From: a virus
Taxonomy: Duplodnaviria > Heunggongvirae > Uroviricota > Caudoviricetes
Direction: 5' to 3' (one strand)
Virus record (IMG/VR): IMGVR_UViG_2602041549_000006
Span: 1-9,199 of that record
DNA length: 9,199 nt
Shown here: piece by piece, positions 1-9,199 of the stretch
How the letters are laid out: each line of letters begins with the position of its first letter
Position numbering within the stretch: position 1 is the first letter of the stretch
Notes under the pieces: generated by a model
What the model was told of the DNA's origin: nothing
The model's input: only the letters and a program-made list of their open reading frames with translations
Databases searched by the model: none
Made by a program: the position numbers and the translations under genes

Positions 1-107
1 GATTCAGGGGGCCAGTCTAGAACATGATTCGCTTATCCCAGTAGTCATTACACAGGCGATACTCTTCCGTTTTCTCACCTGACTTCATCTGGTCGAAATA
101 TTCACCG

Positions 108-410
108 TTAACTGCCAGTTGAAGGTTGGCCACGACCTTCCTCCTTTGGCTTGTGAATTTGTATCGTCATGCCGCTTTGAGTGGTGACTACAATGACAGA
201 ACCAGGCTGAAGGCTGTTAAGATTGAATGCTTCGTAAAACGAATCCAATGCCAGTGCTTTTTTATTCTTTCGGTTCCACCAACGCCATCCCTTGCTACAG
301 GCTACATCGACAATCCACTGTACACTCCTGTAAGCCATATAAAACCAGATGAGCAAAACCTGAAGGAATGCTATCCAGTCAATAATCGTATATTTCGCGA
401 AGGAGTCCAT
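108..410 (-). CDS. Small hypothetical protein (about 100 aa) with one strongly hydrophobic N-terminal segment (IIDWIAFLQVLLIWFYMAY); probable small membrane protein
   Basis: ORF 108..413 in the track begins with GTG at 413; the ATG at 410-408 is preceded by a strong SD (AGGAGGTGA) and overlaps the upstream stop as TGATG. No recognisable domain. Confidence 0.45.
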   Translation of the reverse strand: MDSFAKYTIIDWIAFLQVLLIWFYMAYRSVQWIVDVACSKGWRWWNRKNKKALALDSFYEAFNLNSLQPGSVIVVTTQSGMTIQIHKPKEEGRGQPSTGS

Positions 411-919
411 CACTTCACCTCCTGCTGCGGTGCTGCTGGCATTTCACGCCAGTGCGTAACTGAGTGCGGATCCGGATATTCGGTGCCATCATCCCAGCGA
501 TTGCCATTCCACATTGCAGACCACATCTCACCGTCTTCATACATGACCATTACCGGAATTAACTTATCCGGCATTCGCTCACTACAGCTTATCCAACCAT
601 CCGGAGTTGCCGGAGAATTGCCATTTACCAAGTCAGCTCGAACATATAGCGTGTCATCATGGTGCTGATTGTGGCTGCACCACGTTAATTCGCTTAACTC
701 GCCATCTTCTGGCCATACTCCAGCCGTTTGCAGCCAGATATGGGCTGGCGCATCTTGGCAAGGTGTATTAACTGGCAACTTGTAAGTTTGGCTTACAGGT
801 TCTGCTCCCAGTGATGCCAGTGCAATCCGTGCCACTTCCATTTGTTCGCCACGGGTAAGCCCGTTATCAAGCGGATTTTTAATGGATAATTCAATACGTT
901 CTTTGGTAATAGTGGTCAT
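410..919 (-). CDS. Phage accessory protein, DUF551-like C-terminal region (169 aa)
   Basis: ATG at 919-917 with AAGGA upstream. The C-terminal stretch GWISCSERMPD...THWREMPAAP resembles the DUF551 pattern common in enterobacterial prophage early-left regions (recalled from memory). Stop overlaps the next start. Confidence 0.55.
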   Translation of the reverse strand: MTTITKERIELSIKNPLDNGLTRGEQMEVARIALASLGAEPVSQTYKLPVNTPCQDAPAHIWLQTAGVWPEDGELSELTWCSHNQHHDDTLYVRADLVNGNSPATPDGWISCSERMPDKLIPVMVMYEDGEMWSAMWNGNRWDDGTEYPDPHSVTHWREMPAAPQQEVK

Positions 920-1431
920 GCCGCGTTTCCTTCTTTCTTATTAACAATTACACCGTCATATATTTCATTAAGGTGCCCTCTCAACTCCATACGCCTTAAT
1001 GCAAATAACATGTAATCGCATTCAACCTGCTTATTTCCAGTAAATGGCTTATCGTCAGGATTACCCCAACAGCAATTACCCTTGGGCCACCCATGTACTT
1101 TCCGTACTCTTCCGTTAACAACGTGAAGTAATCCCCAGCCGGGAGGTAAATCCTCAACTGAAATAATTCCCGGCTCACTAATAAAGAATCGCCAGTCGCC
1201 CATTCCAAGAGATGGATTTTTACGAAAACGCTTTTTTCTATCTGCCAACAAGTCAGCACGAGAACACTTCGCCTCTATCAGGCATGATGCTGAATTTCTG
1301 AATCCCATAGCATCTGGCTGTTCTCCGGTACTGGTTACAGCTATAAAGCGGTCATGAAAACAAACCTTGAACCCATTGCGCTTAAGGAACTTATACGCAA
1401 TCTGACAGAGTTCGCGGTGTGTTAACGCCAT
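916..1431 (-). CDS. Hypothetical protein (171 aa) with a PD-x12-ExK arrangement (PDAMGF ... LIEAK); possible PD-(D/E)XK-fold nuclease
   Basis: Track ORF 916..1767 overlaps the upstream gene; the internal ATG at 1431-1429 has an AAGGAG SD and sits 1 nt after the upstream TGA stop. The motif was read directly from the translation; the fold assignment is inference. Confidence 0.5.
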   Translation of the reverse strand: MALTHRELCQIAYKFLKRNGFKVCFHDRFIAVTSTGEQPDAMGFRNSASCLIEAKCSRADLLADRKKRFRKNPSLGMGDWRFFISEPGIISVEDLPPGWGLLHVVNGRVRKVHGWPKGNCCWGNPDDKPFTGNKQVECDYMLFALRRMELRGHLNEIYDGVIVNKKEGNAA

Positions 1432-1432
1432 A

Positions 1433-2053
1433 TCACTCTCCTTTGATGCGAATGCCAGCTGCGCTTGCTGATTCTTCATATGCGCGTTTAGCAGCGTTAA
1501 GGATTGCTGCCAGTGGCGTATAGCCGCCATCCATTCGGATTGTGTTGTGGATGCCAGCCATTGTGTCGCGCAATTTGCTGTGGCTAGCAGACAGTTCTGC
1601 AATGCGCTTCTCTGCGGCTTCCAGCTTCTCGCGCATATCGTCAACGTACTCGACCAGAGATCCGCCAGCAGGAATTTCGCATTCCTCGACCAGTTGGAAG
1701 TAGATATCAGCTGCGGCCCGTGTGTTGCTATGCCTAGCGTCGCCCATCTCACCTTCACGAAGAGCATCGCGTTCGGCGGTAAGATTGGCTATTTTGCTGT
1801 CTTTGCCTTCCAGCTCAACGCGCAGCCTCCCTACCGTTAGCGCAATATCCTCGTTCTCCTGATCGCGGCTTTTGATGTATTGCAGGTTTCTTTCCCGTTC
1901 ATCCAACAATGCCAGCGCGATATCTGGCGAAAAGTGCTTCATAAAATCGTTAAGCGCATTAATTCGCTGATCGAAAGGCATTACAGGTGCTTCACCAGCA
2001 ATTTTTGTTTTTTCAGCGATTTCACGAAGCTTTTGATAATCAATCTTGCTCAT
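1433..2053 (-). CDS. Ead/Ea22-like phage protein (206 aa) with a coiled-coil segment
   Basis: The N-terminus MSKIDYQKLREIAEK matches the typical start of Ead/Ea22-like prophage proteins (recalled). AAGGAG SD present; ATGA overlap with the upstream gene's stop. Confidence 0.6.
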   Translation of the reverse strand: MSKIDYQKLREIAEKTKIAGEAPVMPFDQRINALNDFMKHFSPDIALALLDERERNLQYIKSRDQENEDIALTVGRLRVELEGKDSKIANLTAERDALREGEMGDARHSNTRAAADIYFQLVEECEIPAGGSLVEYVDDMREKLEAAEKRIAELSASHSKLRDTMAGIHNTIRMDGGYTPLAAILNAAKRAYEESASAAGIRIKGE

Positions 2054-2889
2054 TGGATGACTCCTTTACGAAGCTGTTCGGCGATATCTTCGAGAACGCC
2101 ATCAGAGAATGAACGGTCAAAATCGCCTTCCGGCGCATTAGCCATAAACTCAGTAGAGGTAAGAATCATCCGGGCAATATCCGCGGCGTTCTTCGCAGTA
2201 TCATCAATAAAACCAGCTTCCCAGGCAGCCAGCATTCTGTTCGCCACAAAGTAAGCGCCCTCCTTGCGTGCTTCAGTCTTCACTTCAGCCAGGAAAGCAT
2301 CGGTGGCTGGGGTGTCTGATTGCAGAGACTTTGCGCGATAGTCATTCCACCCTCTTGCATACATGGGATTAACTTGCACTCCATCTTTTACGCAATATGC
2401 CTGCCCTCCACGGTTGATAACCTTGATTTCGTCCATAGCGCCAGACTTCATCCCCGCATTCTCCGCTGCCAGCTCCGCGCACTTGGCCTCAAGAGCGGCA
2501 ACCACTTCCTGATGGTCTTTGTACTTAACGTATGAGCCGGAGATGTCATCACCTTCGGTGTTTAGCCATGCGTCATTGCAATTCACTGCGTAGGTTCTGA
2601 TGCTCTCCCGCCTATGACAGACGCCAGGCCAGTCAATAAAGTATCCGCATTCCTTCTCAGATTGCTTAAGCGATGTATTTTCAGCAGCCATCTTCGCGCA
2701 TTTAGCCTCAAGGTTATCAATCGTGATTCCAGCAGAACGACACTCCCGCAACGCCGTTTCCAGTTTTGATTCAAGTTCACCGAACTTACGGACAAGATAT
2801 TCAGCGTTTGTTTCGTTAACCTTTAAATCACTTGGGATGCATTTACCTTTCAGAAAACCATCCATCTCAATTAGTGACATTTGTTTCAT
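2050..2889 (-). CDS. Coiled-coil phage protein with an internal tandem duplication (Ea22-like region); start ambiguous
   Basis: Long minus-strand ORF. The track start at 2907 is GTG with no SD; the ATG at 2889 has GGAG upstream, so either could be real. The motif LEAKCAxxAAEN occurs twice in the protein and is visible as a DNA repeat (2476-2495 versus 2697-2715). Confidence 0.5.
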   Translation of the reverse strand: MKQMSLIEMDGFLKGKCIPSDLKVNETNAEYLVRKFGELESKLETALRECRSAGITIDNLEAKCAKMAAENTSLKQSEKECGYFIDWPGVCHRRESIRTYAVNCNDAWLNTEGDDISGSYVKYKDHQEVVAALEAKCAELAAENAGMKSGAMDEIKVINRGGQAYCVKDGVQVNPMYARGWNDYRAKSLQSDTPATDAFLAEVKTEARKEGAYFVANRMLAAWEAGFIDDTAKNAADIARMILTSTEFMANAPEGDFDRSFSDGVLEDIAEQLRKGVIQ

Positions 2890-2983
2890 TTCTTCCCACT
2901 CCGCCACATCGCATTCAGATATTTGTTGTCATTAACAGAACCGAAACTCTTTCTCTTAAGCAAGTCCTCTCATGGTAAATTCC

Positions 2984-3277
2984 TCAGTCATTACTGATAG
3001 CGCCATAACGTGAGCGGTAATTACGCAGGCGCGGGTCAATTTCAGGGAAGTGGGTATATGTGGCTTTGCGGAATGGTCGGATTGATGTCTGGTAAATTCG
3101 CTCGCGTTCTTCTTTCTCTGCAAGCCATATACAATGGCGAAATTCCTTTTCCTCTTTCGTTTCCTGCGGTATCGACATTATCAGGTTGTAGTTTTTCCTG
3201 AATTTATCCAGCACCTCCGATACGGAATTGCCGGAACATCGGCGCGCGTCATCCGCACCATACAGAGGCGCTGGCAT
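2984..3277 (-). CDS. Hypothetical small phage protein (97 aa)
   Basis: ATG at 3277-3275 preceded by an AGGAG SD; same orientation and tight spacing with neighbouring genes. No recognisable domain. Confidence 0.5.
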   Translation of the reverse strand: MPAPLYGADDARRCSGNSVSEVLDKFRKNYNLIMSIPQETKEEKEFRHCIWLAEKEERERIYQTSIRPFRKATYTHFPEIDPRLRNYRSRYGAISND

Positions 3278-3293
3278 GGTTTTCTCCTGTTGA

Positions 3294-3842
3294 TTATTTA
3301 GCTAACTTTTTCCAGATCGCTGAAACGTATTTGGCTTGGTGAATGGCATCATCAAGCGCGTTGTGGCGAGTTCCTTTGAATGGCATATCTCGCTTAGGGT
3401 CGAATCCTATTACCTTCCCAAGTTCGACGATTGTTCTTACGTCGCGGTCATTCCACCACTGCCACGGAACTGGCTGCCCTGTCAGCGAATAACTGTTTCG
3501 GAGAATAACGCAGTCAAATGATGCTCCATTCCCCCAAACCTGAACGAATTTGTGGTTAGCGTTCTTTATGATGAATTCAGATAACCATGAAAGAGCCGTT
3601 GAAAGCTCCTGAGTGTTGCTGGTTAGCGATTTTCTGGCTTCTTCACTCTGTTCCAGCCACCATAAAATCGTTGAAGCGTCAGGACGCGCTCGATATCGCA
3701 TTGATGACTCAAGCGAGATATTTACCGAGAACTCTTCTCCTGTTTCTCCGGTATTCGGGTCAAAGAATACCGCCCCAATAGAAATAACTGGCGCGTATGG
3801 CCCGTTGCCCATTGTTTCAAGGTCAACCATCAAGTGATTCAT
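3294..3842 (-). CDS. 3'-5' exonuclease, DEDD(h)/DnaQ-like fold (182 aa)
   Basis: N-terminal MVDLETMG (Exo I motif, D-x-E) and C-terminal HNALDDA (Exo III motif, H-x4-D) read from the translation. AAGGA SD upstream of the ATG at 3842. Confidence 0.7.
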   Translation of the reverse strand: MNHLMVDLETMGNGPYAPVISIGAVFFDPNTGETGEEFSVNISLESSMRYRARPDASTILWWLEQSEEARKSLTSNTQELSTALSWLSEFIIKNANHKFVQVWGNGASFDCVILRNSYSLTGQPVPWQWWNDRDVRTIVELGKVIGFDPKRDMPFKGTRHNALDDAIHQAKYVSAIWKKLAK

Positions 3843-3850
3843 GTAAGTCC

Positions 3851-4330
3851 TTAAATTGCGTGAATAGCGTGACGAGGGAAGGGGAGAGTTACTGGCTCCT
3901 CGTCTGGGTAGATAGGTTTGTTATGTTTGTGCCACTCGACATGACATGACTTGCAGAGCCACATCACATCGGTTGGTTTGCTGTAGTCGCAGTGGTGCGC
4001 CTGTGGTTTACATTCTGATCCGCAGCACTCACATTGTGGTGGTCGGATTAGCTTACCGTCGCGCAAAAAATTACCCACAATGATGTGGGCTTTTCTTTTC
4101 CATGGGTTGCTCTGAATGAACCGCTTTTTGGCTGCGTTACACCGTTCTCTTCCGCGTTCCGATGATTGATATTCTCTCCTTGCTGATACTCGATGTGGCA
4201 ATCCAGCGCGTTCTTTGTCGTATTCAGCCAGGCAAGCCCGGCAAGCGGCAGTTAATCCATCTCTGGATGCTCTTCTGATTTGAAAGTCCCTTTCTTCCTT
4301 ATGTTGATGGCATCTTGAGCAGATTTTCAT
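3851..4330 (-). CDS. HNH endonuclease (159 aa), zinc-binding, free-standing
   Basis: C-terminal QCECCG ... AHHCDYSKP ... WLCKSCHVEWH gives the HNH catalytic His pair plus Cys4-type metal ligands; additional CxxC pairs at the N-terminus. AGGAG SD upstream. Confidence 0.7.
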   Translation of the reverse strand: MKICSRCHQHKEERDFQIRRASRDGLTAACRACLAEYDKERAGLPHRVSARREYQSSERGRERCNAAKKRFIQSNPWKRKAHIIVGNFLRDGKLIRPPQCECCGSECKPQAHHCDYSKPTDVMWLCKSCHVEWHKHNKPIYPDEEPVTLPFPRHAIHAI

Positions 4331-4339
4331 ATTCAGCTC

Positions 4340-4813
4340 CTAGAACGGAATATCCGAATCGTCGAAGTTCATAGGTGGTTCGCTGTGATTCCCATGCTGC
4401 TGAGATTGCTGTCTTTGTTGCTGGCCGTTATTTCGCTGAGGTGAAGACTGTTCATTGCCTCCTTGCTTGCCACCAAGCATTTGCATGGTTCCACCAACGC
4501 CTACGATAACTTCGGTAGTGAACCGATCCTGTCCACTTTGATCCTGCCATTTTCTTGTCCGCAATTTGCCTTCAAGATAAACCTCTGAGCCTTTCCGCAG
4601 ATACTCGCTGGCAATTTCTGCCAGTTTCCCGCTCATTACCACACGGTGCCACTCCGTCTGCTCCTTTTGCTCTCCAGTTTGCTTATCACGCCATTGTTCT
4701 GACGTAGCAACTGTAAGGTTTGCAAATGCCGTTCCTGATGGTGAATATCTGATTTCTGGATCATGCCCAAGGCGACCAATAATGATCACCTTATTTACGC
4801 CTCTGCTTGCCAT
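4340..4813 (-). CDS. ssb: Single-stranded DNA-binding protein SSB (157 aa)
   Basis: OB-fold N-terminus ([17 protein letters not shown]...), Gly/Gln-rich linker and the canonical acidic tail DDSDIPF. Confidence 0.9.
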
Positions 4814-5521
4814 TTATGCCGCCTGTTTTAGCTCGTTAACTCTGATGTTCATTACCTGAACGCATTTAGCCTGCGCATCCTCATTGCCAGCCATTAATTG
4901 CCAGTCACGCTGATAACGCTCTATGAGTTTTTTCTTGTCAGTTTCTGTTGATGCATAATCGCTGAAGTCTTTCAGGATTTGTTCGCAGTCAACCGATGGA
5001 GATTTCTGGTTGGTATTTTCTGGTGATGGTTTGTTATCTGATGCTGGGATTGCCCATCCCGGCAGCGATGGAGGGAGCCAGTAAAATCCTGTTCCATCCT
5101 TCAGTTTTGCCCTGTGCCACCCCTGCTTTTTATCGAGAGATGTTTGTGCGAAACCTTCCTCAAGGTTATACAGATACCGACCGATTCCCCATTGAACGGC
5201 AGCACGCTTCATTGCACCGGAACGACCACCTTTGACGGCTTCTACCTGCGTGTTTTCAGCAGCATCCCATTTGGTTACCCATTCGGAATCAATCTTGATT
5301 GATATGCCGCATTCAACTCCGCCGTTGTTGGGAATATCGCGGTATTCATTGCGCCATCCTGCTTTGCCGCAAACATCGTCCAGGCGTTTCATGATTGCCC
5401 GGTTCGTGACATAAGCCAGCACCATAGCCCACACCTTGCCATCGCGTGTTTTACCGCTTTGCTGTATTCGCCATTCGATATCTTCAGGGCTGAATGGCTC
5501 ATCGAATTTGTTCAAATCCAT
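4814..5521 (-). CDS. Single-strand annealing recombinase, Rad52/Sak-like family (235 aa); functional analogue of lambda Bet / P22 Erf
   Basis: Motifs GWRNEY, GGVECGISI and AVQWGIGRYLY fit Rad52-family annealing proteins (recalled). Sits immediately upstream of ssb, with a GAGGTGA SD. Confidence 0.65.
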   Translation of the reverse strand: MDLNKFDEPFSPEDIEWRIQQSGKTRDGKVWAMVLAYVTNRAIMKRLDDVCGKAGWRNEYRDIPNNGGVECGISIKIDSEWVTKWDAAENTQVEAVKGGRSGAMKRAAVQWGIGRYLYNLEEGFAQTSLDKKQGWHRAKLKDGTGFYWLPPSLPGWAIPASDNKPSPENTNQKSPSVDCEQILKDFSDYASTETDKKKLIERYQRDWQLMAGNEDAQAKCVQVMNIRVNELKQAA

Positions 5522-5620
5522 AATTCACCTCAGAATGGACACGGCCCAAGAAAATAACGCTGATTTAATACTTCGACTCGGGACAAATTAAGGCATACCC
5601 GCATTCCTTCGCGGTCACCA

Positions 5621-5779
5621 TTATGGCGATACCAGAGAGCTTTCTGCGTGTACATGCGTCTCTGTAACTTGCTCTCCTTCACTGTGGTTGCAAGTGACAT
5701 GAATATCTCCTTCGTTACCGATTAATTCTTTCATCTGACGAATGAATTCTTCGTCTGACCATTTATCTGTAAAACTCAT
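5621..5779 (-). CDS. Small protein (52 aa) in the kil position, downstream of and translationally coupled to cIII; function unknown
   Basis: ATG at 5779-5777 overlaps the cIII stop as ATGA. Assignment is by position only; the longer track ORF 5621..5809 would overlap cIII by 34 nt. Confidence 0.35.
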   Translation of the reverse strand: MSFTDKWSDEEFIRQMKELIGNEGDIHVTCNHSEGEQVTETHVHAESSLVSP

Positions 5780-5946
5780 GGACGGCCTTGTTGTTTCAAA
5801 ATATCCCAAAGCTTTTCGAGCAAACTTTTCATTCTTGGTTGTTTAAAGTCTGCTCCGGTTAAAATGTTTTTTCGTGAATGCTGTACCGATAAAATCGGGT
5901 TGAAAGGGCGAACCGATGCCGCCCCTGCAATAGCGAACTGTTGCAT
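5776..5946 (-). CDS. cIII: CIII-like protein (56 aa); regulator that protects CII from FtsH
   Basis: Internal ATG at 5946-5944 with an AAGGAG SD. The protein MQQFAIAGAAS...LLEKLWDILKQQGRP resembles lambda CIII (MQYAIAGW...LIDILNQPGVP) in start, length and C-terminus. The longer track ORF would read through the terminator hairpin. Confidence 0.65.
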   Translation of the reverse strand: MQQFAIAGAASVRPFNPILSVQHSRKNILTGADFKQPRMKSLLEKLWDILKQQGRP

Positions 5947-6011
5947 AGGATGCTCCTTCTGTTTGATTGCATAACGAAAACGCCTCGAGTGAAGCGTTAT
6001 TGGTATGCATA

Positions 6012-6036
6012 TAAAAAAGCCCTCACACTGGAGGGC
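6012..6036 (-). terminator. Intrinsic terminator on the minus strand (tL1-like), downstream of the N plus orf156 unit
   Basis: The minus strand reads GCCCTC-cagtgt-GAGGGC followed by TTTTTTAT: a 6-bp GC stem, 6-nt loop and T6 tract. There is no T-tract on the plus-strand side. Confidence 0.6.
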
Positions 6037-6098
6037 AAAGAAGATTTCCAATAATCAGAACAAGTCGGCTCCTGTTTAGTTACGAGCGACATTGCTCC

Positions 6099-6126
6099 GT
6101 GTATTCACTCGTTGGAATGAATACAC
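6099..6126. repeat. Perfect 9-bp inverted repeat (GTGTATTCA-N10-TGAATACAC) just 3' of orf156
   Basis: Read directly from the sequence; no adjacent U-tract, so not a classical terminator. Confidence 0.5.
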
Positions 6127-6140
6127 AGTGCTTATTCGTA

Positions 6141-6611
6141 CTAATAAAACACCCAGTTTTCTGTTTCTTGGTTGTGTCCAAAGTTATATTCAATACCTGG
6201 TGTTGATGTATCAATATTCTTCATCCCATCAACAAGAGTTGATACAACAGCCAAATCTTGTTTGATTCTCATCAAATGGTATTTCTTCCGGCGCAATAAA
6301 CTTTCAATGGCAAGTTTCTTCGTCGGGAATGCAAAAGATCTTTCTGCATTTTTTGCTACTTTCTTAATTGCATATCTATTTCTCCTTTGTTTCCATTCCT
6401 GTAACCACTGATTTGGTGCTGGTTTAAAATTAACAATCCAATGCGCAGGAACCAACCATGCATAATGCTCTGTCTGATGAAAAGCTATATATTGAAGTGC
6501 GAATATTTTGATTCCATCTTCTTCAACTGTCGCTTGGAATCTCCAGAAAACAGGCATTCCATCATGTTCAGTTTCTGATTCAGGAAAAGGTACGCTCCAT
6601 GATTTTGTCAT
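6141..6611 (-). CDS. Hypothetical protein (156 aa), AT-rich moron in the ral/sieB position directly after N; function unknown
   Basis: ATG at 6611-6609 with SD GAGGTGA overlapping the N stop codon. The segment is visibly AT-rich compared with its flanks. No recognisable domain, no transmembrane segment. Confidence 0.6.
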   Translation of the reverse strand: MTKSWSVPFPESETEHDGMPVFWRFQATVEEDGIKIFALQYIAFHQTEHYAWLVPAHWIVNFKPAPNQWLQEWKQRRNRYAIKKVAKNAERSFAFPTKKLAIESLLRRKKYHLMRIKQDLAVVSTLVDGMKNIDTSTPGIEYNFGHNQETENWVFY

Positions 6612-6619
6612 ATATCACC

Positions 6620-6955
6620 TCAAATAAGTGGTTTGCTGCCTAATTTCATTTTCTGGCGACCAACACAAGTCACACCCATTTCACTGCGTGGCTTGCGGTA
6701 GTAAATACGATTCTGTTTACTCTCGACTTCATCTGCCTTCTTGCAGCGAAGGATTCCGAGTGATATTGCTTTTTCAGAAAGGCTTAAACGCTTTCTTGGG
6801 GCTTCCTGAACAGGTTCCTCACTGTCTGTGCCGAAGATAGAATCAATGATGTTGCAGATGGCATCACGCTCGATAGCCAGCTTTCTGCGCCGCTCATGAC
6901 GGCGAGTTTTGGCATTTCCTGCAAATGTTGATTTCCCGTACACGATTACCGTCAT
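6620..6955 (-). CDS. N: Antitermination protein N (112 aa) with a P22-type arginine-rich motif and a lambda-like C-terminus
   Basis: The N-terminus MTVIVYGKSTFAGNAKTRRHERRRKLAIER matches the P22 N ARM peptide (recalled); the C-terminus YYRKPRSEMGVTCVGRQKMKLGSKPLI parallels the lambda N C-terminus (WYSKPGERGITCSGRQKIKGKSIPLI). ATG at 6955 with AGGA upstream; the track ORF extends to 7039. Confidence 0.85.
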   Translation of the reverse strand: MTVIVYGKSTFAGNAKTRRHERRRKLAIERDAICNIIDSIFGTDSEEPVQEAPRKRLSLSEKAISLGILRCKKADEVESKQNRIYYRKPRSEMGVTCVGRQKMKLGSKPLI

Positions 6956-7074
6956 GATGTTTTCCTCATGTGAAATGGCTTTGGTGGTGATGCGCCAGAT
7001 GCTGATCTTCTGGTTGCTGTCGTTGCAGCTGCAATTCACATCACCGCCAAATCCATCTCGTTTGGTATCTGTTT

Positions 7075-7109
7075 GCGCTTTGTCAGCGCCCCATCGAAGT
7101 TAAAGAGCA
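7075..7109 (-). promoter_or_regulatory. nutL: boxA (TGCTCTTTA) and boxB hairpin (GCGCTGACAAAGCGC)
   Basis: On the minus strand: boxA-like TGCTCTTTA, a 12-nt spacer, then a 4-bp GCGC stem closing a loop that contains GACAA. This matches my recollection of P22 nutL boxB. It lies between the predicted PL and N. Confidence 0.7.
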
Positions 7110-7154
7110 TGCCAATCTGTTCCGTTTGGCTTCCAGCTTCCTGCTGATGGCTAA

Positions 7155-7183
7155 ATAGTACGATGTGTACTTTATTGAGTCAA
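7155..7183 (-). promoter_or_regulatory. PL candidate: -35 TTGACT (7178-7183), 17-bp spacer, -10 TACTAT (7155-7160), overlapped by operator-like palindromes
   Basis: Hexamers read on the minus strand. The 13-bp perfect palindrome TATTGAGTCAATA (7173-7185) overlaps the -35 and AGTAC-N5-GTACT (7157-7171) overlaps the -10/spacer. Confidence 0.5.
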
Positions 7184-7242
7184 TACAAAATGTTCTAAAT
7201 ATAATTAGTTTTTTATAACGCTTTGTATTTAATAGGTTTATA

Positions 7243-7278
7243 TTTTGGAAAAAGAAAACCCGACGCTAAGGTCGGGTT
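7243..7278 (-). terminator. Intrinsic terminator downstream of cI (weaker on the plus strand)
   Basis: 8-bp stem AACCCGAC/GTCGGGTT with a 6-nt loop; on the minus strand it is followed by TTCTTTTTCC, on the plus strand by ATTGTTGTGTATTTT. Confidence 0.6.
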
Positions 7279-7308
7279 ATTGTTGTGTATTTTAGAGTTG
7301 TGAGGCTG

Positions 7309-7968
7309 TTAACTAAATGTCTCTTCAGGCCACTGGCTGGCGATAACTTTCCCTACTACGGAACAGCTATCATTGCATGGAATCATTGGATATTGCGGGT
7401 TTAGTGGCTGTAGGAACACCTGACCGCTATCCCTGATCAGTTTCTTGAAGGTAAACTCATCACCTCCAAGTCTGGCTATGCAAAAATCACCGGGCTCAAT
7501 AGCCTGCTCAGGGTCAACAAGAATTAACATCCCGTCAGGAAAGCTTGGCTTGGATCCTGTTGGCGCGGTCATGGAATTACCTTCAACCTCAAGCCAGAAT
7601 GCAGAATCACTGGCTTTTTTGGTTGTGCTTACCCATCTCTCCGCATCACCTTTGGTAAAGGTTCTAAGCTCAGGCGAGAACATCCCGGCCTGAACATGAG
7701 AAAAAACAGGGTACTCATATTGTTTTTTAACGGGGGCAGATGAGTATTCGCCAACAGGTGAAAATGTACCGTCGTGGTTGAATGAGACGTTATCAATACC
7801 AAGGTATTTAAACACCACACCAATCTCGTCAAGAGATGGATGACGAGATCCGCGCAACCAGTGACCAATTCCACCCTGCGTCATACCAAGCTCTTCAGCT
7901 AACTTCTCTTGAGTTATGCCGAGTTCTTTCATTCTGGATCTAGCCAGTTCATACCATTTCATTTTCAT
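7309..7968 (-). CDS. cI: CI-type prophage repressor (219 aa): non-lambda N-terminal HTH domain fused to a lambda-cI-like LexA/S24 C-terminal domain
   Basis: The C-terminal about 130 aa ([19 protein letters not shown] ... [12 protein letters not shown]) is near-identical to lambda cI as I recall it, including the Ala-Gly cleavage site and the Ser and Lys of the catalytic dyad; the N-terminal about 85 aa is different. ATG at 7968-7966 with an AAGGA SD; the track ORF extends to 8043. Confidence 0.9.
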
Positions 7969-8024
7969 ATCCTTATTATTACGCTCTGTACTAAAACCAT
8001 CCATGCACAAGATGTATTTTTTGT

Positions 8025-8053
8025 TTGCATTCCAAAAGTACATATCGTATTAT
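8025..8053 (+). promoter_or_regulatory. PR candidate: -35 TTGCAT (8025-8030), 17 bp, -10 TATTAT (8048-8053), inside the OR region 7969-8079
   Basis: Best sigma70-like match on the plus strand upstream of cro; SD GGAGGG at 8071-8076. Operator half-sites could not be defined confidently; AGTACATATCGTATT (8036-8050) and ATTACGCTCTGTACT (7979-7993) resemble the OL element. Confidence 0.4.
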
Positions 8054-8079
8054 TGTTTCATGATTACTATGGAGGGCAT

Positions 8080-8295
8080 ATGAGCAACCTACGAAAATAT
8101 CGAGAGTCACTGAATATCTCTCAAACAACACTTGCTAAGGCGGTTGGATGCACACAGGGAGCTATCGGACATTGGGAATCTGGTCGTCGCTTCCCAGACC
8201 TTAAAACATGCCGTGCTCTTGTTGCGTGCCTAAACAAGTTAGGCGCAAAAGTCAGTCTTGATGACGTGTTCCCACCGGAACACAAAGCCGCTTAA
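8080..8295 (+). CDS. cro: Cro-like HTH repressor (71 aa)
   Basis: Divergent from cI across a 111-bp operator region; ATG at 8080 with a GGAGGG SD; HTH segment QTTLAKAVGCTQGAIGHWESG. The track ORF 7909..8295 is an upstream extension without an SD. Confidence 0.8.
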   Translation: MSNLRKYRESLNISQTTLAKAVGCTQGAIGHWESGRRFPDLKTCRALVACLNKLGAKVSLDDVFPPEHKAA

Positions 8296-8305
8296 TAAGC
8301 GGATC

Positions 8306-8340
8306 CGCTCTTTATCAATCTGCACCGCCGACAACGCGGT
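8306..8340 (+). promoter_or_regulatory. nutR: boxA (CGCTCTTTA, 8306-8314) and boxB hairpin (ACCGC-cGACAAc-GCGGT, 8324-8340)
   Basis: Consensus boxA followed 9 nt later by a 5-bp stem whose loop contains GACAA, the same loop core as the nutL boxB, as expected for a P22-type N. Confidence 0.7.
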
Positions 8341-8352
8341 AACTAATTAAGC

Positions 8353-8385
8353 ACTCATCGAAAGATGAGTATTAGTGATTATTTA
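8353..8385 (+). terminator. tR1-position hairpin (ACTCATC-GAAA-GATGAGT) followed by a weakly T-rich tract
   Basis: 7-bp stem with a GAAA tetraloop between nutR and cII; the downstream tract ATTAGTGATTATTTA is only moderately U-rich, so this may be a weak or N-suppressible terminator. Confidence 0.35.
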
Positions 8386-8394
8386 CCTATGGAA

Positions 8395-8437
8395 ATAGTA
8401 AGAAATGGAACAAACAAGTTACAGCAAACTATCACAG
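8395..8437 (-). promoter_or_regulatory. PRE-like CII-dependent promoter: TTGC-N6-TTGT box (8424-8437) and -10 TACTAT (8395-8400)
   Basis: On the minus strand TTGCtgtaacTTGT lies at codons 7-11 of cII, analogous to the lambda TTGC-N6-TTGC site in early cII codons; a 17-bp spacer then TACTAT. Confidence 0.4.
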
Positions 8438-8701
8438 CGCGATGTTGATCGCGCAGAAACAGATTTACTTATCAACCTGTCAACGCTTACACAGCGCGGT
8501 CTGGCAAAGATGATTGGCTGTCATGAATCGAAGATAAGCAGAACGGACTGGAGATTTATTGCTTCGGTCTTGTGTGCTTTCGGAATGGCATCAGACATCA
8601 GTCCGATTAGCAGGGCTTTTAAGTATGCGCTTGATGGACTCACCAATAAAAAACGCCCGGCGGCAACCGAGCGTTCTTATCAAATACAAATGGAATTTTA
8701 A
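8405..8701 (+). CDS. cII: CII transcriptional activator (98 aa)
   Basis: The C-terminus LTNKKRPAATERSYQIQMEF is nearly identical to lambda CII (ILTNKKRPAATERSEQIQMEF, recalled); length and position after cro and nutR fit. Confidence 0.9.
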   Translation: MEQTSYSKLSQRDVDRAETDLLINLSTLTQRGLAKMIGCHESKISRTDWRFIASVLCAFGMASDISPISRAFKYALDGLTNKKRPAATERSYQIQMEF

Positions 8702-8712
8702 CAACATCCAGC
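8646..8712 (-). ncRNA. OOP-like antisense RNA overlapping the 3' end of cII (terminator 8645-8673, putative -10 TATAAT at 8719-8724)
   Basis: On the minus strand: stem CGCUCGG/CCGGGCG (one G-U pair), loop UUGCCG, then UUUUUUAUU; matches my recollection of the lambda oop terminator. A TATAAT hexamer lies about 70 nt upstream on the minus strand. The 5' end is inferred. Confidence 0.5.
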
Positions 8713-8723
8713 GAGGTAATTAT

Positions 8724-8867
8724 ATGCGAAAAACGCAGGAAAATAAACGCGTTAATCACCGAAAAGATGTGCTACGTGACCAGTTTTATCAGGGGGTTAA
8801 TCCAGCAATAGCTGTGCCACTGAGAGAAATACTTAACAGGTACAAAACTTCGGAGAAGTCAAAATGA
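8724..8867 (+). CDS. Small hypothetical basic protein (47 aa) between cII and the replication gene
   Basis: ATG at 8724 with a GAGGT SD; stop overlaps the next start as ATGA. The track ORF 8559..8867 extends upstream into cII in another frame. Confidence 0.4.
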   Translation: MRKTQENKRVNHRKDVLRDQFYQGVNPAIAVPLREILNRYKTSEKSK

Positions 8868-9199
8868 GCATGAATCTTATGGCTAAGGCCATGAATATAA
8901 AGGTTGGCAACCCACTGAGAAAACTGGTTCTGATTAAACTTGCCGATAACGCCAATGATAATGGCGAATGCTGGCCTTCATATCAACATGTCGCTGACCA
9001 GTGTGAGGTGAGCAGATCGACAGTAAAAAGTCACATTAGGGCACTGGAAGAGATGGGGCTTTTGAAAAGGGAATTCAGAAGAAAAGGAGAGCTTAACCAG
9101 TCAAACGTTTTTTATCTGACGCTGGATAATGCACAACAAATCCAACCAGAATCAGGTGGGGCAGGAGCTGCCCGGGGTGGGGCAGGAGCTGCCCGGGGT
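8864..9199 (+). CDS. Replication initiator, O-like, with N-terminal winged-HTH (5' partial, runs off the window end)
   Basis: Open frame from the ATG at 8864 to the window end (112 codons, no stop). The translation MSMNLMAKAMNIKVGNPLRKLVLIKLADNANDNGECWPSYQHVADQCEVSRSTVKSHIRALEEMGLLKR is HTH-like and the gene is in the O position; iteron-like repeats lie inside it. Confidence 0.65.
   Translation, partial: MSMNLMAKAMNIKVGNPLRKLVLIKLADNANDNGECWPSYQHVADQCEVSRSTVKSHIRALEEMGLLKREFRRKGELNQSNVFYLTLDNAQQIQPESGGAGAARGGAGAARG
9155..9199 (+). repeat. Iteron-like direct repeats (putative ori): 21-bp unit GGTGGGGCAGGAGCTGCCCGG, two exact copies plus the start of a third at the window edge
   Basis: Exact tandem copies at 9155-9175 and 9176-9196; each unit contains the dyad GGGCAG-gag-CTGCCC. 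In frame they encode a Gly/Ala-rich linker (GGAGAARG repeated). Confidence 0.6.

Follow-up and report, generated by a model that had tools for sequence, protein, structure and literature searches.

A free-standing HNH-type endonuclease gene at the 3' end of a lambdoid phage ssb gene: evidence for a probable homing-type cassette

In bacteriophage T4, the free-standing endonuclease gene segG forms a cassette between gene 32, which encodes the T4 single-stranded DNA-binding protein (SSB), and gene 59, and it targets gene 32 of phages that lack segG (Edgell et al., 2010, PMC2988022). The activity and biased inheritance of SegG are proven and flanking markers are co-converted; segG has been listed with the cassettes that depend on T4 promoters upstream, and a promoter specific to segG has also been located within the 3' end of the preceding gene (PMC2988022). 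Another relevant gene is gene 26 of phage Sf6, whose product (NP_958202) is recorded as an "endonuclease" and whose record already notes 14 residues common to the gene 26 protein and an SSB. Here we analyzed an HNH-type open reading frame (ORF) that is essentially the same gene as Sf6 gene 26 (99.6% nucleotide identity over 480 nucleotides [nt], same position after ssb). It lies in a 9,199-nt stretch of a caudoviricete (IMG/VR record IMGVR_UViG_2602041549_000006, positions 1 to 9,199; the whole stretch is hereafter called the window), which spans the immunity region together with the early-left operon of a phage or prophage of the lambdoid (Sf6/P22-like) type. A first-pass annotation had placed a free-standing ORF at positions 3851-4330, between ssb and an exonuclease gene, and its coordinates, strand and neighbors proved correct. 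The HNH ORF is, in our judgment, probably a free-standing homing-type HNH (His-Me finger) gene, i.e., a selfish, promoterless cassette of ~0.47 kb at the ssb 3' end, because its distribution is patchy, its junction with ssb is fixed and recoded, relatives are borne by introns, the slot has been reinvaded by other HNH genes and decay products are found.

The closest relatives were sampled as 80 IMG/VR viral loci (L099-L178) with an annealing protein at least 99% identical. The HNH ORF was present in 18 of the 80 and absent from 62, a sporadic presence at a fixed site. All 62 ORF-less loci had a long ssb, whose product ended in ...DDDIPF-APVTLPFPRHAIHAI, and all 18 ORF-bearing loci had a short ssb ending in ...DIPF, with the tail closing the HNH ORF. 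This rule was without exception across the 80 close relatives, all of which kept the tail DNA, on one protein or the other. The 168-amino-acid (aa) SSBs of phages HK75 (L002:3001-3507) and epsilon34 (L003:3001-3507), which end in ...DFDDDIPF-APVTLPFPRHAIHAI, show that the long SSB consists of a canonical acidic tip plus 15 residues; the final 14 match the end of the HNH ORF product exactly. Since the tail follows the canonical ...DDDIPF, the tip of the long SSB is not C-terminal. Long SSBs are common, as many enterobacterial phage SSBs end in the tip plus APVTLPFPRHAIHAI, and the 45-nt tail is 100% identical at the ssb end in HK75, epsilon34, mEp235 and others. The first-pass annotation had proposed comparing relatives at exactly this junction, with a universal, syntenic ORF lacking any insertion signature as the outcome that would count against mobility; what the comparison revealed was an ORF that is optional among very close relatives and that carries an insertion signature.

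On the window-type backbone, the consensus ssb sequences of ORF-bearing and ORF-less loci are identical over the first 444 nt and differ at 8 positions plus one codon, all in the last ~30 nt. The long allele reads ATG GAT TTT GAC GAC GAT ATC CCC TTT GCA followed by CCAGTAACT..., and the short allele reads ATG AAC TTC GAC GAT TCG GAT ATT CCG TTC TAG gagctgaat ATG, continues through the ORF and closes with ...GAC GAG GAG followed by CCAGTAACT.... Because the alleles diverge only there, the polymorphic unit comprises the recoded tip with its stop codon, the ribosome-binding site and all of the ORF except the final 14 codons. Only ORF-less alleles have the tip/tail junction, and the adjacent ~30 nt are recoded in ORF-bearing alleles, which makes the junction a candidate recognition site of the nuclease. 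Two ssb backbones, with 45-60% DNA identity over the distal two-thirds, were both found in both states: the 80 loci contained long forms and the window-type short form, and the HK75-type backbone with a normal stop and then a homologue was found in other contigs.

The tail itself bears on the direction of the event. Among 34 distinct tail sequences, 23 synonymous and 9 non-synonymous substitutions were counted in frame, compared to 5:27 and 2:30 in the other two frames, and this synonymous excess shows that the tail peptide, beyond the DNA alone, is conserved. The tip-plus-tail arrangement occurs on at least 10 different SSB linker backbones. HNH homologues that are 69-82% identical and come from other phage backgrounds have unrelated C-termini right after ...PIYP and, on these comparisons, the tail does not belong to the nuclease family as such. 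Tip extensions of 9-15 residues are also found on SSBs of unrelated phages, e.g., ...DEIPF-SPVGLQYGRHRIYAL in L080 and ...DDDIPF-APIGLQYGRNFLHCF in phage Mt1B1_P17, as well as in L094, L077 and L057. Given the differing C-termini of the other homologues, the variety of linker backbones and unrelated extensions and the synonymous excess, the tail looks like an SSB feature into which the HNH ORF reads. Insertion of the ORF into a long ssb is favored, since the tail looks SSB-derived and a simple deletion fails to explain the different tip codons.

The opposite direction would make the HNH ORF an old resident gene that is being lost; the long ssb would then be a scar left by a precise in-frame deletion, through which ssb became joined to the final 15 codons of the ORF, and this scar allele would have spread by recombination, without any mobility of the ORF. 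Consistent with such a loss are HK75-type backbones in which a normal stop precedes a homologue with the ending ...DE(E/A)PVTLPFPRHAIHAI (L005, P0021/P0022), an arrangement that gives exactly the long SSB when the ORF is taken out, and the existence of other in-frame deletion fusions (P0011, P0014). Given its role in SSB-partner binding, a canonical tip should lie at the C-terminus of SSB, so that the extension looks derived. A deletion would, however, retain the ORF-linked tip codons, and the long alleles differ there on the same backbone; nor does a scar account for a tail that is under purifying selection on so many linker backbones, for the similar tip extensions in the unrelated L080, L094, L077 and Mt1B1_P17, or for close HNH homologues elsewhere that have no tail. 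We regard this loss scenario as improbable. The tail as a pure DNA element or as a simple deletion scar is likewise disfavored by the in-frame substitution ratio and the different tip codons.

In L080, an ERF-type temperate contig, the homologue downstream has its start codon within the codons of the SSB tail (...CAA T/ATG G...; 2394-2855 with 2827-3348), and the same layout is found in the virulent Phapecoctavirus Mt1B1_P17 (L305:870-1802 with ~1774-2268), in which the annotated nuclease start is apparently too far downstream. With the start within the tail codons, the SSB and nuclease genes of these two phages overlap in different frames, and part of the tail conservation there may come from the overlapping start of the downstream homologue. 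The tail could also serve as a degron or as a short motif for interaction: the PVTLPF stretch is loosely similar to hexapeptides that bind the clamp, for example QLSLPL, and the ...HAI end may be similar to ClpX C-terminal signals.

The patchy distribution extends beyond the IMG/VR loci. Among 5,426 complete E. coli genomes, the full ORF was found in 98 and the 45-nt tail alone was matched in roughly 300 others; in the tail-only genomes, among those listed, the tail always ends an annotated ssb gene. Similarly, 26 phage records matched, of which 7 held the whole ORF and 18 the last 45-46 nt alone, which were the ssb end where annotated. Sequenced phages that carry the ORF include Sf6, CurroJimenez, IME10 and N7, and those without it include HK75, epsilon34, g341c, mEp235 and mEpX2. 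As working phages such as HK75 and epsilon34, and 62 of the 80 relatives, do without it, the ORF is dispensable.

The first-pass annotation had also suggested that the protein may act with the annealing protein and the exonuclease as an end-processing nuclease, and as regards the exonuclease this suggestion found no support. All four combinations of the HNH ORF and the DnaQ-like exonuclease gene occur, namely both genes in the window, the ORF alone in Sf6, the exonuclease alone in epsilon34 and neither in HK75; in Sf6 the ORF abuts abc2, as Sf6 has no exonuclease gene. The ORF-by-exonuclease contingency was 4/14/26/35 among the 79 scorable IMG/VR loci (Fisher p = 0.17), and coupling of the ORF to the exonuclease gene was rejected on both counts. 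Thus, given the presence in 18 of 80 loci and the four combinations, the HNH ORF is neither universal nor exonuclease-coupled. A broader proposal is that the ORF encodes a genuine nuclease of the recombination (Rec) module that works with SSB and owes its patchiness to modular swapping; SSB-coated DNA would attract it, perhaps via the tip, and its nicks or cuts there would make ends for the annealing protein or start recombination-dependent replication. In favor of this proposal, the packing within the module is tight and translationally coupled. The order annealing gene-ssb-ORF-exonuclease-abc2, with gaps of 0-16 nt, has the contiguity expected of a Rec-module nuclease (PMC12315714), and HNH nucleases have been listed as a fourth type of nuclease in lambdoid Rec modules, the tightly packed ones being likely legitimate, although the same authors also caution on the mobility of HNH genes (Zheng et al., 2025, PMC12315714). 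An analogous pairing of ssb with HNHc_6 is found in staphylococcal phages (PMC8093625), and conservation of the tail peptide on the nuclease also agrees with the proposal. A functional need of the module is not apparent, however, from an ORF that is missing from most relatives with a near-identical annealing protein and whose distribution is not complementary to that of the other module nuclease, the exonuclease, and protein co-evolution does not explain why the ssb tip beside the ORF is recoded mostly by synonymous changes. Taken with the evidence from the wider family given below, we consider a genuine Rec-module nuclease, the main rival to homing, a possible but rather unlikely explanation.

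In at least 54 of 62 informative viral contigs, a homologue (with identities as low as ~31%) follows, within ~100 nt, a gene whose product carries the SSB tip at its end; several of the remaining loci are failures of the ORF-picking heuristic, and the same adjacency was seen in eight contexts from exact protein look-up. In 50 loci the tip forms the extreme C-terminus of the upstream protein, and in 4 a short extension comes after it. These upstream proteins are 80-530 aa long and include canonical OB-fold SSBs and proteins without a Pfam match; the adjoining recombinases are Rad52-like, ERF or Sak4-like, and annotated Vibrio and Phapecoctavirus phages share the arrangement of tip gene followed by nuclease. 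This linkage, irrespective of SSB type or recombinase family, counts in favor of a Rec-module nuclease, and the adjacency is compatible with a target for homing within ssb as well as with a nuclease that functions as a partner of SSB. Other members of the family lie in quite different places. I-KsaII, annotated as intron-encoded in polA of Staphylococcus Kayvirus phages, is 34.9% identical to the HNH ORF product (E 3e-20), and a homologue splits polA in Enterococcus phage EFGrKN; relatives are thus found inside an intron by record annotation and in a split gene, the split polA genes belonging to Herelleviridae phages. A partnership with SSB is inapplicable to family members in split or intron-containing polA. 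In Yersinia phage PYps23T a homologue lies between the helicase/primase and DNA polymerase genes (L302:1798-2181). This homologue and one in Escherichia phage Alux-21 (hit H100) are labeled "baseplate wedge protein" in their records; given the position of the PYps23T gene between helicase/primase and polymerase genes, its label is probably a mis-annotation. Together with presence and absence at the exact junction and the recoded ssb tip with its captured tail, the polA-borne relatives point to the mobile homing-type endonuclease that had been suggested at first pass, as far as sequence comparison can indicate.

The slot between ssb and abc2 is not reserved for this family. In phage ES18 it is filled by gp47 (L298:8214-8735; PF13392, HNH_3), behind a short ssb ending in ...NFDDEIPF. 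The ES18 "Rec-module HNH nuclease" was rejected as a member of the same family, as it is HNH_3 by Pfam and is unmatched by the profile of the HNH ORF family; since gp47 is unrelated and yet there, the ssb-abc2 slot is used by different endonuclease families. A second HNH_3 gene (155 aa, PF13392 plus a helix-turn-helix [HTH] domain; L005:3060-3527) sits between the annealing gene and ssb, and such a gene was found there in 8 of the 80 relatives (e.g., L148, L115 and L129), independently of the state of the HNH ORF. Decayed copies of the HNH ORF are common as in-frame SSB::HNH and HNH::exonuclease fusions and as truncations. The database chimeras P0011, P0014, P0023, P0054, P0062 and P0063 are of two types, one joining the N-terminal part of SSB to the C-terminal half of the nuclease, with one junction at a shared IVG, and the other joining the nuclease N-terminus to the C-terminal part of the exonuclease. 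The existence of these in-frame chimeras indicates repeated deletion across the ssb/nuclease/exonuclease stretch in prophages. Unrelated HNH families in the same slot and frequent truncations and fusions both argue against a genuine Rec-module nuclease.

The HNH zinc-finger label given at first pass holds at the level of ligands and predicted fold and finds no counterpart among curated models. Pfam and NCBIfam scans of the HNH ORF at E<=10 gave no match, including to curated HNH models such as PF01844 and PF13392; Pfam at E<=0.01 gave no HNH model match for ten distant homologues; hhalign against HK97 gp74, a bona fide HNH protein (itself PF01844), found no relation; and a profile search of PDB sequences was negative. 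PHROG 2340 "endonuclease" (E 5.7e-47) was the only curated-type match, besides weak PHROG matches to zinc-ribbon families. It should be noted that a distant homologue, P0073, has a precomputed Pfam label, PF27269.1, of a family not in the Pfam copy scanned, which may cover part of the HNH family. In an alignment of 37 homologues (35-87% identity), C100, C103, H112, H113, D115, Y116, P119, L125, H130, W133 and H134 are invariant and C126 is kept in at least 90% of homologues; its CxxC partner C129 is His in a few members, a Cys-to-His swap as expected for a zinc site. The protein thus has the conserved catalytic His and CxxC zinc ligands of the HNH/His-Me finger superfamily. The AlphaFold2 model (predicted local distance difference test [pLDDT] score 93) consists of beta-hairpins (residues 1-30), four helices, a beta-beta-alpha unit, i.e., the beta-hairpin and alpha-helix of a metal finger fold, and a disordered segment of the last ~19 residues. 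In this model, the zinc ribbon and the helices of residues 31-90 are probably the DNA-binding half, and the nuclease looks intact, with invariant catalytic and zinc ligands and an HNH fold. A chance ORF is ruled out by the near-identity to Sf6 gene 26, by 77 database homologues and by 1,080 cluster representatives at E<1e-30 in the profile search.

The structural matches of the model include P1 Ref, Cap5 and McrA, and they lend themselves to more than one reading. P1 Ref is an HNH-fold "recombination enhancement function", which is in line with a Rec-module nuclease. HNH domains are also common as defense effectors, of which Cap5 and McrA are examples, and the nuclease could serve mainly in inter-phage competition or defense by degrading superinfecting, resident rival or host DNA; early expression from pL and the patchy distribution of an accessory gene are compatible with that. 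The fixed junction and the linkage to recoded flanks are, however, unlike typical moron or defense islands, no sensor gene is paired with the ORF (no search of the PADLOC library was made), and exclusion of rivals with the empty allele would be a normal by-product of homing anyway. We consider a primary role in competition or defense very unlikely.

Under the homing reading, the cassette would bring the recoded last nine ssb codons plus stop, so that SSB would gain a free ...DIPF tip, together with a ribosome-binding site and a nuclease ORF that has no stop of its own and reads into the 14 tail codons. The HNH ORF is transcribed from pL with the recombination genes, as shown by its position and orientation and by the lack of a promoter. 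When a phage with the cassette meets a long-ssb relative, by co-infection or in a lysogen, the nuclease would nick or cut at or near the tip/tail junction, found only in the empty allele, and recombinational repair would copy the cassette and the recoded tip into the recipient. The carrier would be immune because its site is split and recoded. The consequence would be a gene that is optional, moves horizontally across ssb backbones and is lost by deletion in prophages. Of this account, the data show the anatomy, polymorphism, fold and homology, and nuclease activity, a target at the tip/tail junction and copying through repair are its predicted parts.

Several points weigh against this reading. 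The database loci are phylogenetically non-independent samples. Literature searches covering Sf6 gene 26, I-KsaII and HNH homing at ssb yielded no functional study, nor any cleavage, nicking or biased-inheritance data for the protein or a close homologue; I-KsaII itself is a "putative endonuclease" by annotation only. The adjacency to SSB-tip genes would fit a functional partnership with SSB equally well, and purifying selection on the tail, also where it stands on the nuclease, suggests a protein integrated in phage physiology. Homologous recombination between phages in the conserved flanking DNA could transfer the cassette with no need of nuclease activity, and the direction of the event, i.e., insertion into a long ssb rather than precise loss from a short ssb plus ORF, is one that we infer. 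No target-site duplication or flanking repeats were found around the HNH ORF, and none is expected for homing; in the search for a transposon-style signature (flanking direct or inverted repeats, target-site duplication) the candidates were two 14-nt imperfect pairs at chance level, and that signature was rejected. A domesticated element that combines homing with an SSB role is possible. More tentatively, and with little confidence in the joint claim, the family may be specialized for SSB-tip DNA as a homing site across diverse phages, and in lambdoids the insertion may act as a switch from a long, tip-masked SSB to a free-tip SSB, with the tail handed to the nuclease.

The features of the locus are collected in Table 1. 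The HNH ORF is spaced 9 nt from ssb and 8 nt from the exonuclease start. No promoter-like site was found in 2900-5600, and thus none of the HNH ORF's own. A GC-rich hairpin with a T-run at 4073-4090, inside the ORF, is terminator-like on both strands, the number of such sites being within chance, and no structured RNA was found in the window by Rfam family match. Two other early-left ORFs of the window, at 916-1767 (minus strand, 283 aa) and 6141-6611 (minus strand, 156 aa), have no Pfam match. The intact 480-nt ORF is without a RefSeq/PGAP gene in 10 of the 10 full-length E. coli genome matches listed, and in E. coli 2013C-4991 (NZ_CP027355.1; L306:1788-2289) the locus-tag numbering skips one number over it; the HNH gene seems to be missed systematically by RefSeq annotation.

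Table 1. Coordinates of the HNH ORF, its parts and its neighbors in the window.
Feature	Position	Strand	Remarks
HNH-type endonuclease ORF	3851..4330	-	Intact, 159 aa; ATG at 4330, TAA 3851-3853; Sf6 gene 26 equivalent; PHROG 2340 member
Last 14 codons plus stop of HNH ORF, right cassette edge	3851..3895	-	PVTLPFPRHAIHAI and stop; equals end of long SSB in ORF-less relatives
HNH (beta-beta-alpha-metal) catalytic core, residues 98-136	3923..4039	-	C-x2-C-x8-HH-x-DY-x2-P-x5-LC-x2-CH-x2-WH
N-terminal zinc ribbon, residues 1-33	4232..4330	-	CxxC...CxxC (C4, C7, C30, C33); Cys kept in at least 90% of homologues
Spacer of 9 nt, ssb stop to HNH ORF start	4331..4339	-	Read from sequence
AGGAG Shine-Dalgarno for HNH ORF	4337-4341	-	Overlaps ssb stop codon
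Recoded SSB tip, left cassette edge	4340..4369	-	AAC TTC GAC GAT TCG GAT ATT CCG TTC TAG (NFDDSDIPF and stop); travels with HNH ORF
ssb, short form with free ...DDSDIPF C-terminus	4340..4813	-	PF00436, E 1.7e-38; translation
Rad52-type single-strand annealing protein	4814..5521	-	PF04098, E 5.1e-26; PHROG 1097
DnaQ-like 3'-5' exonuclease (Rv2179c-like)	3294..3842	-	PF16473, E 2.9e-73
abc2, anti-RecBCD	2984..3277	-	PF11043, E 6.7e-63; distal end of recombination module
cI-type repressor	7309-8043	-	
N	6620-7039	-	
Ea22- and DUF551-type accessory genes		-	Last in early-left transcription order
cro-like HTH gene and cII		+	

The gene sequence (as Sf6 gene 26), HNH genes in lambdoid Rec modules and free-standing endonuclease genes beside ssb are already known; what may be new are the strict alternation between a long ssb and a short ssb plus ORF, the conserved 14-15-residue tail that is always encoded and shifts from SSB to nuclease, and the association, throughout the family, with genes for proteins that end in the SSB tip. 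The "nuclease" box drawn in many lambdoid recombination modules is not automatically a working part of the recombination pathway, and the HNH gene is optional and probably selfish. Its HNH family is large, with about 1,000 cluster representatives at E<1e-30, and is unmodeled by Pfam and NCBIfam. If homing is true, endonuclease genes land repeatedly at the ssb 3' end, as with T4 segG, which could drive local mosaicism of the Rec module. The insertion alters the C-terminus of the phage SSB, the region that governs partner binding in bacterial SSBs, and because of this change the two allelic states may differ in the contacts between phage SSB and host proteins.

Compared to known systems, the zinc-ribbon HNH nicking endonucleases T5 SciA, Gme HNH and GVE2 HNH, as well as EcoKMcrA, have no detectable sequence-profile relation to the HNH ORF product and differ in biological role. 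P1 Ref, which acts with RecA, is without sequence similarity to the HNH ORF and is not ssb-linked. ES18 gp47 and the HNH_3 gene of L005 are, like the HNH ORF, free-standing in the same lambdoid Rec module, but they are T7 gp7.7-like and I-HmuI-related, belong to another HNH subfamily and have their own stop codon, the tail not being captured. I-KsaII of phage K and other Kayvirus phages is homologous over residues 2-134 and has the same layout of an N-terminal zinc ribbon and a C-terminal HH...CxxCH; unlike the window ORF, it lies inside a split, intron-annotated polA and not behind ssb. The closest documented parallel is T4 segG. SegG is a GIY-YIG enzyme and the window protein is of the HNH type, the segG cassette does not read into the ssb ORF, and homing is proven for SegG and is what we infer here; like segG, the HNH ORF is an intronless, free-standing endonuclease gene that lies beside a phage ssb and is co-oriented with its neighbors.

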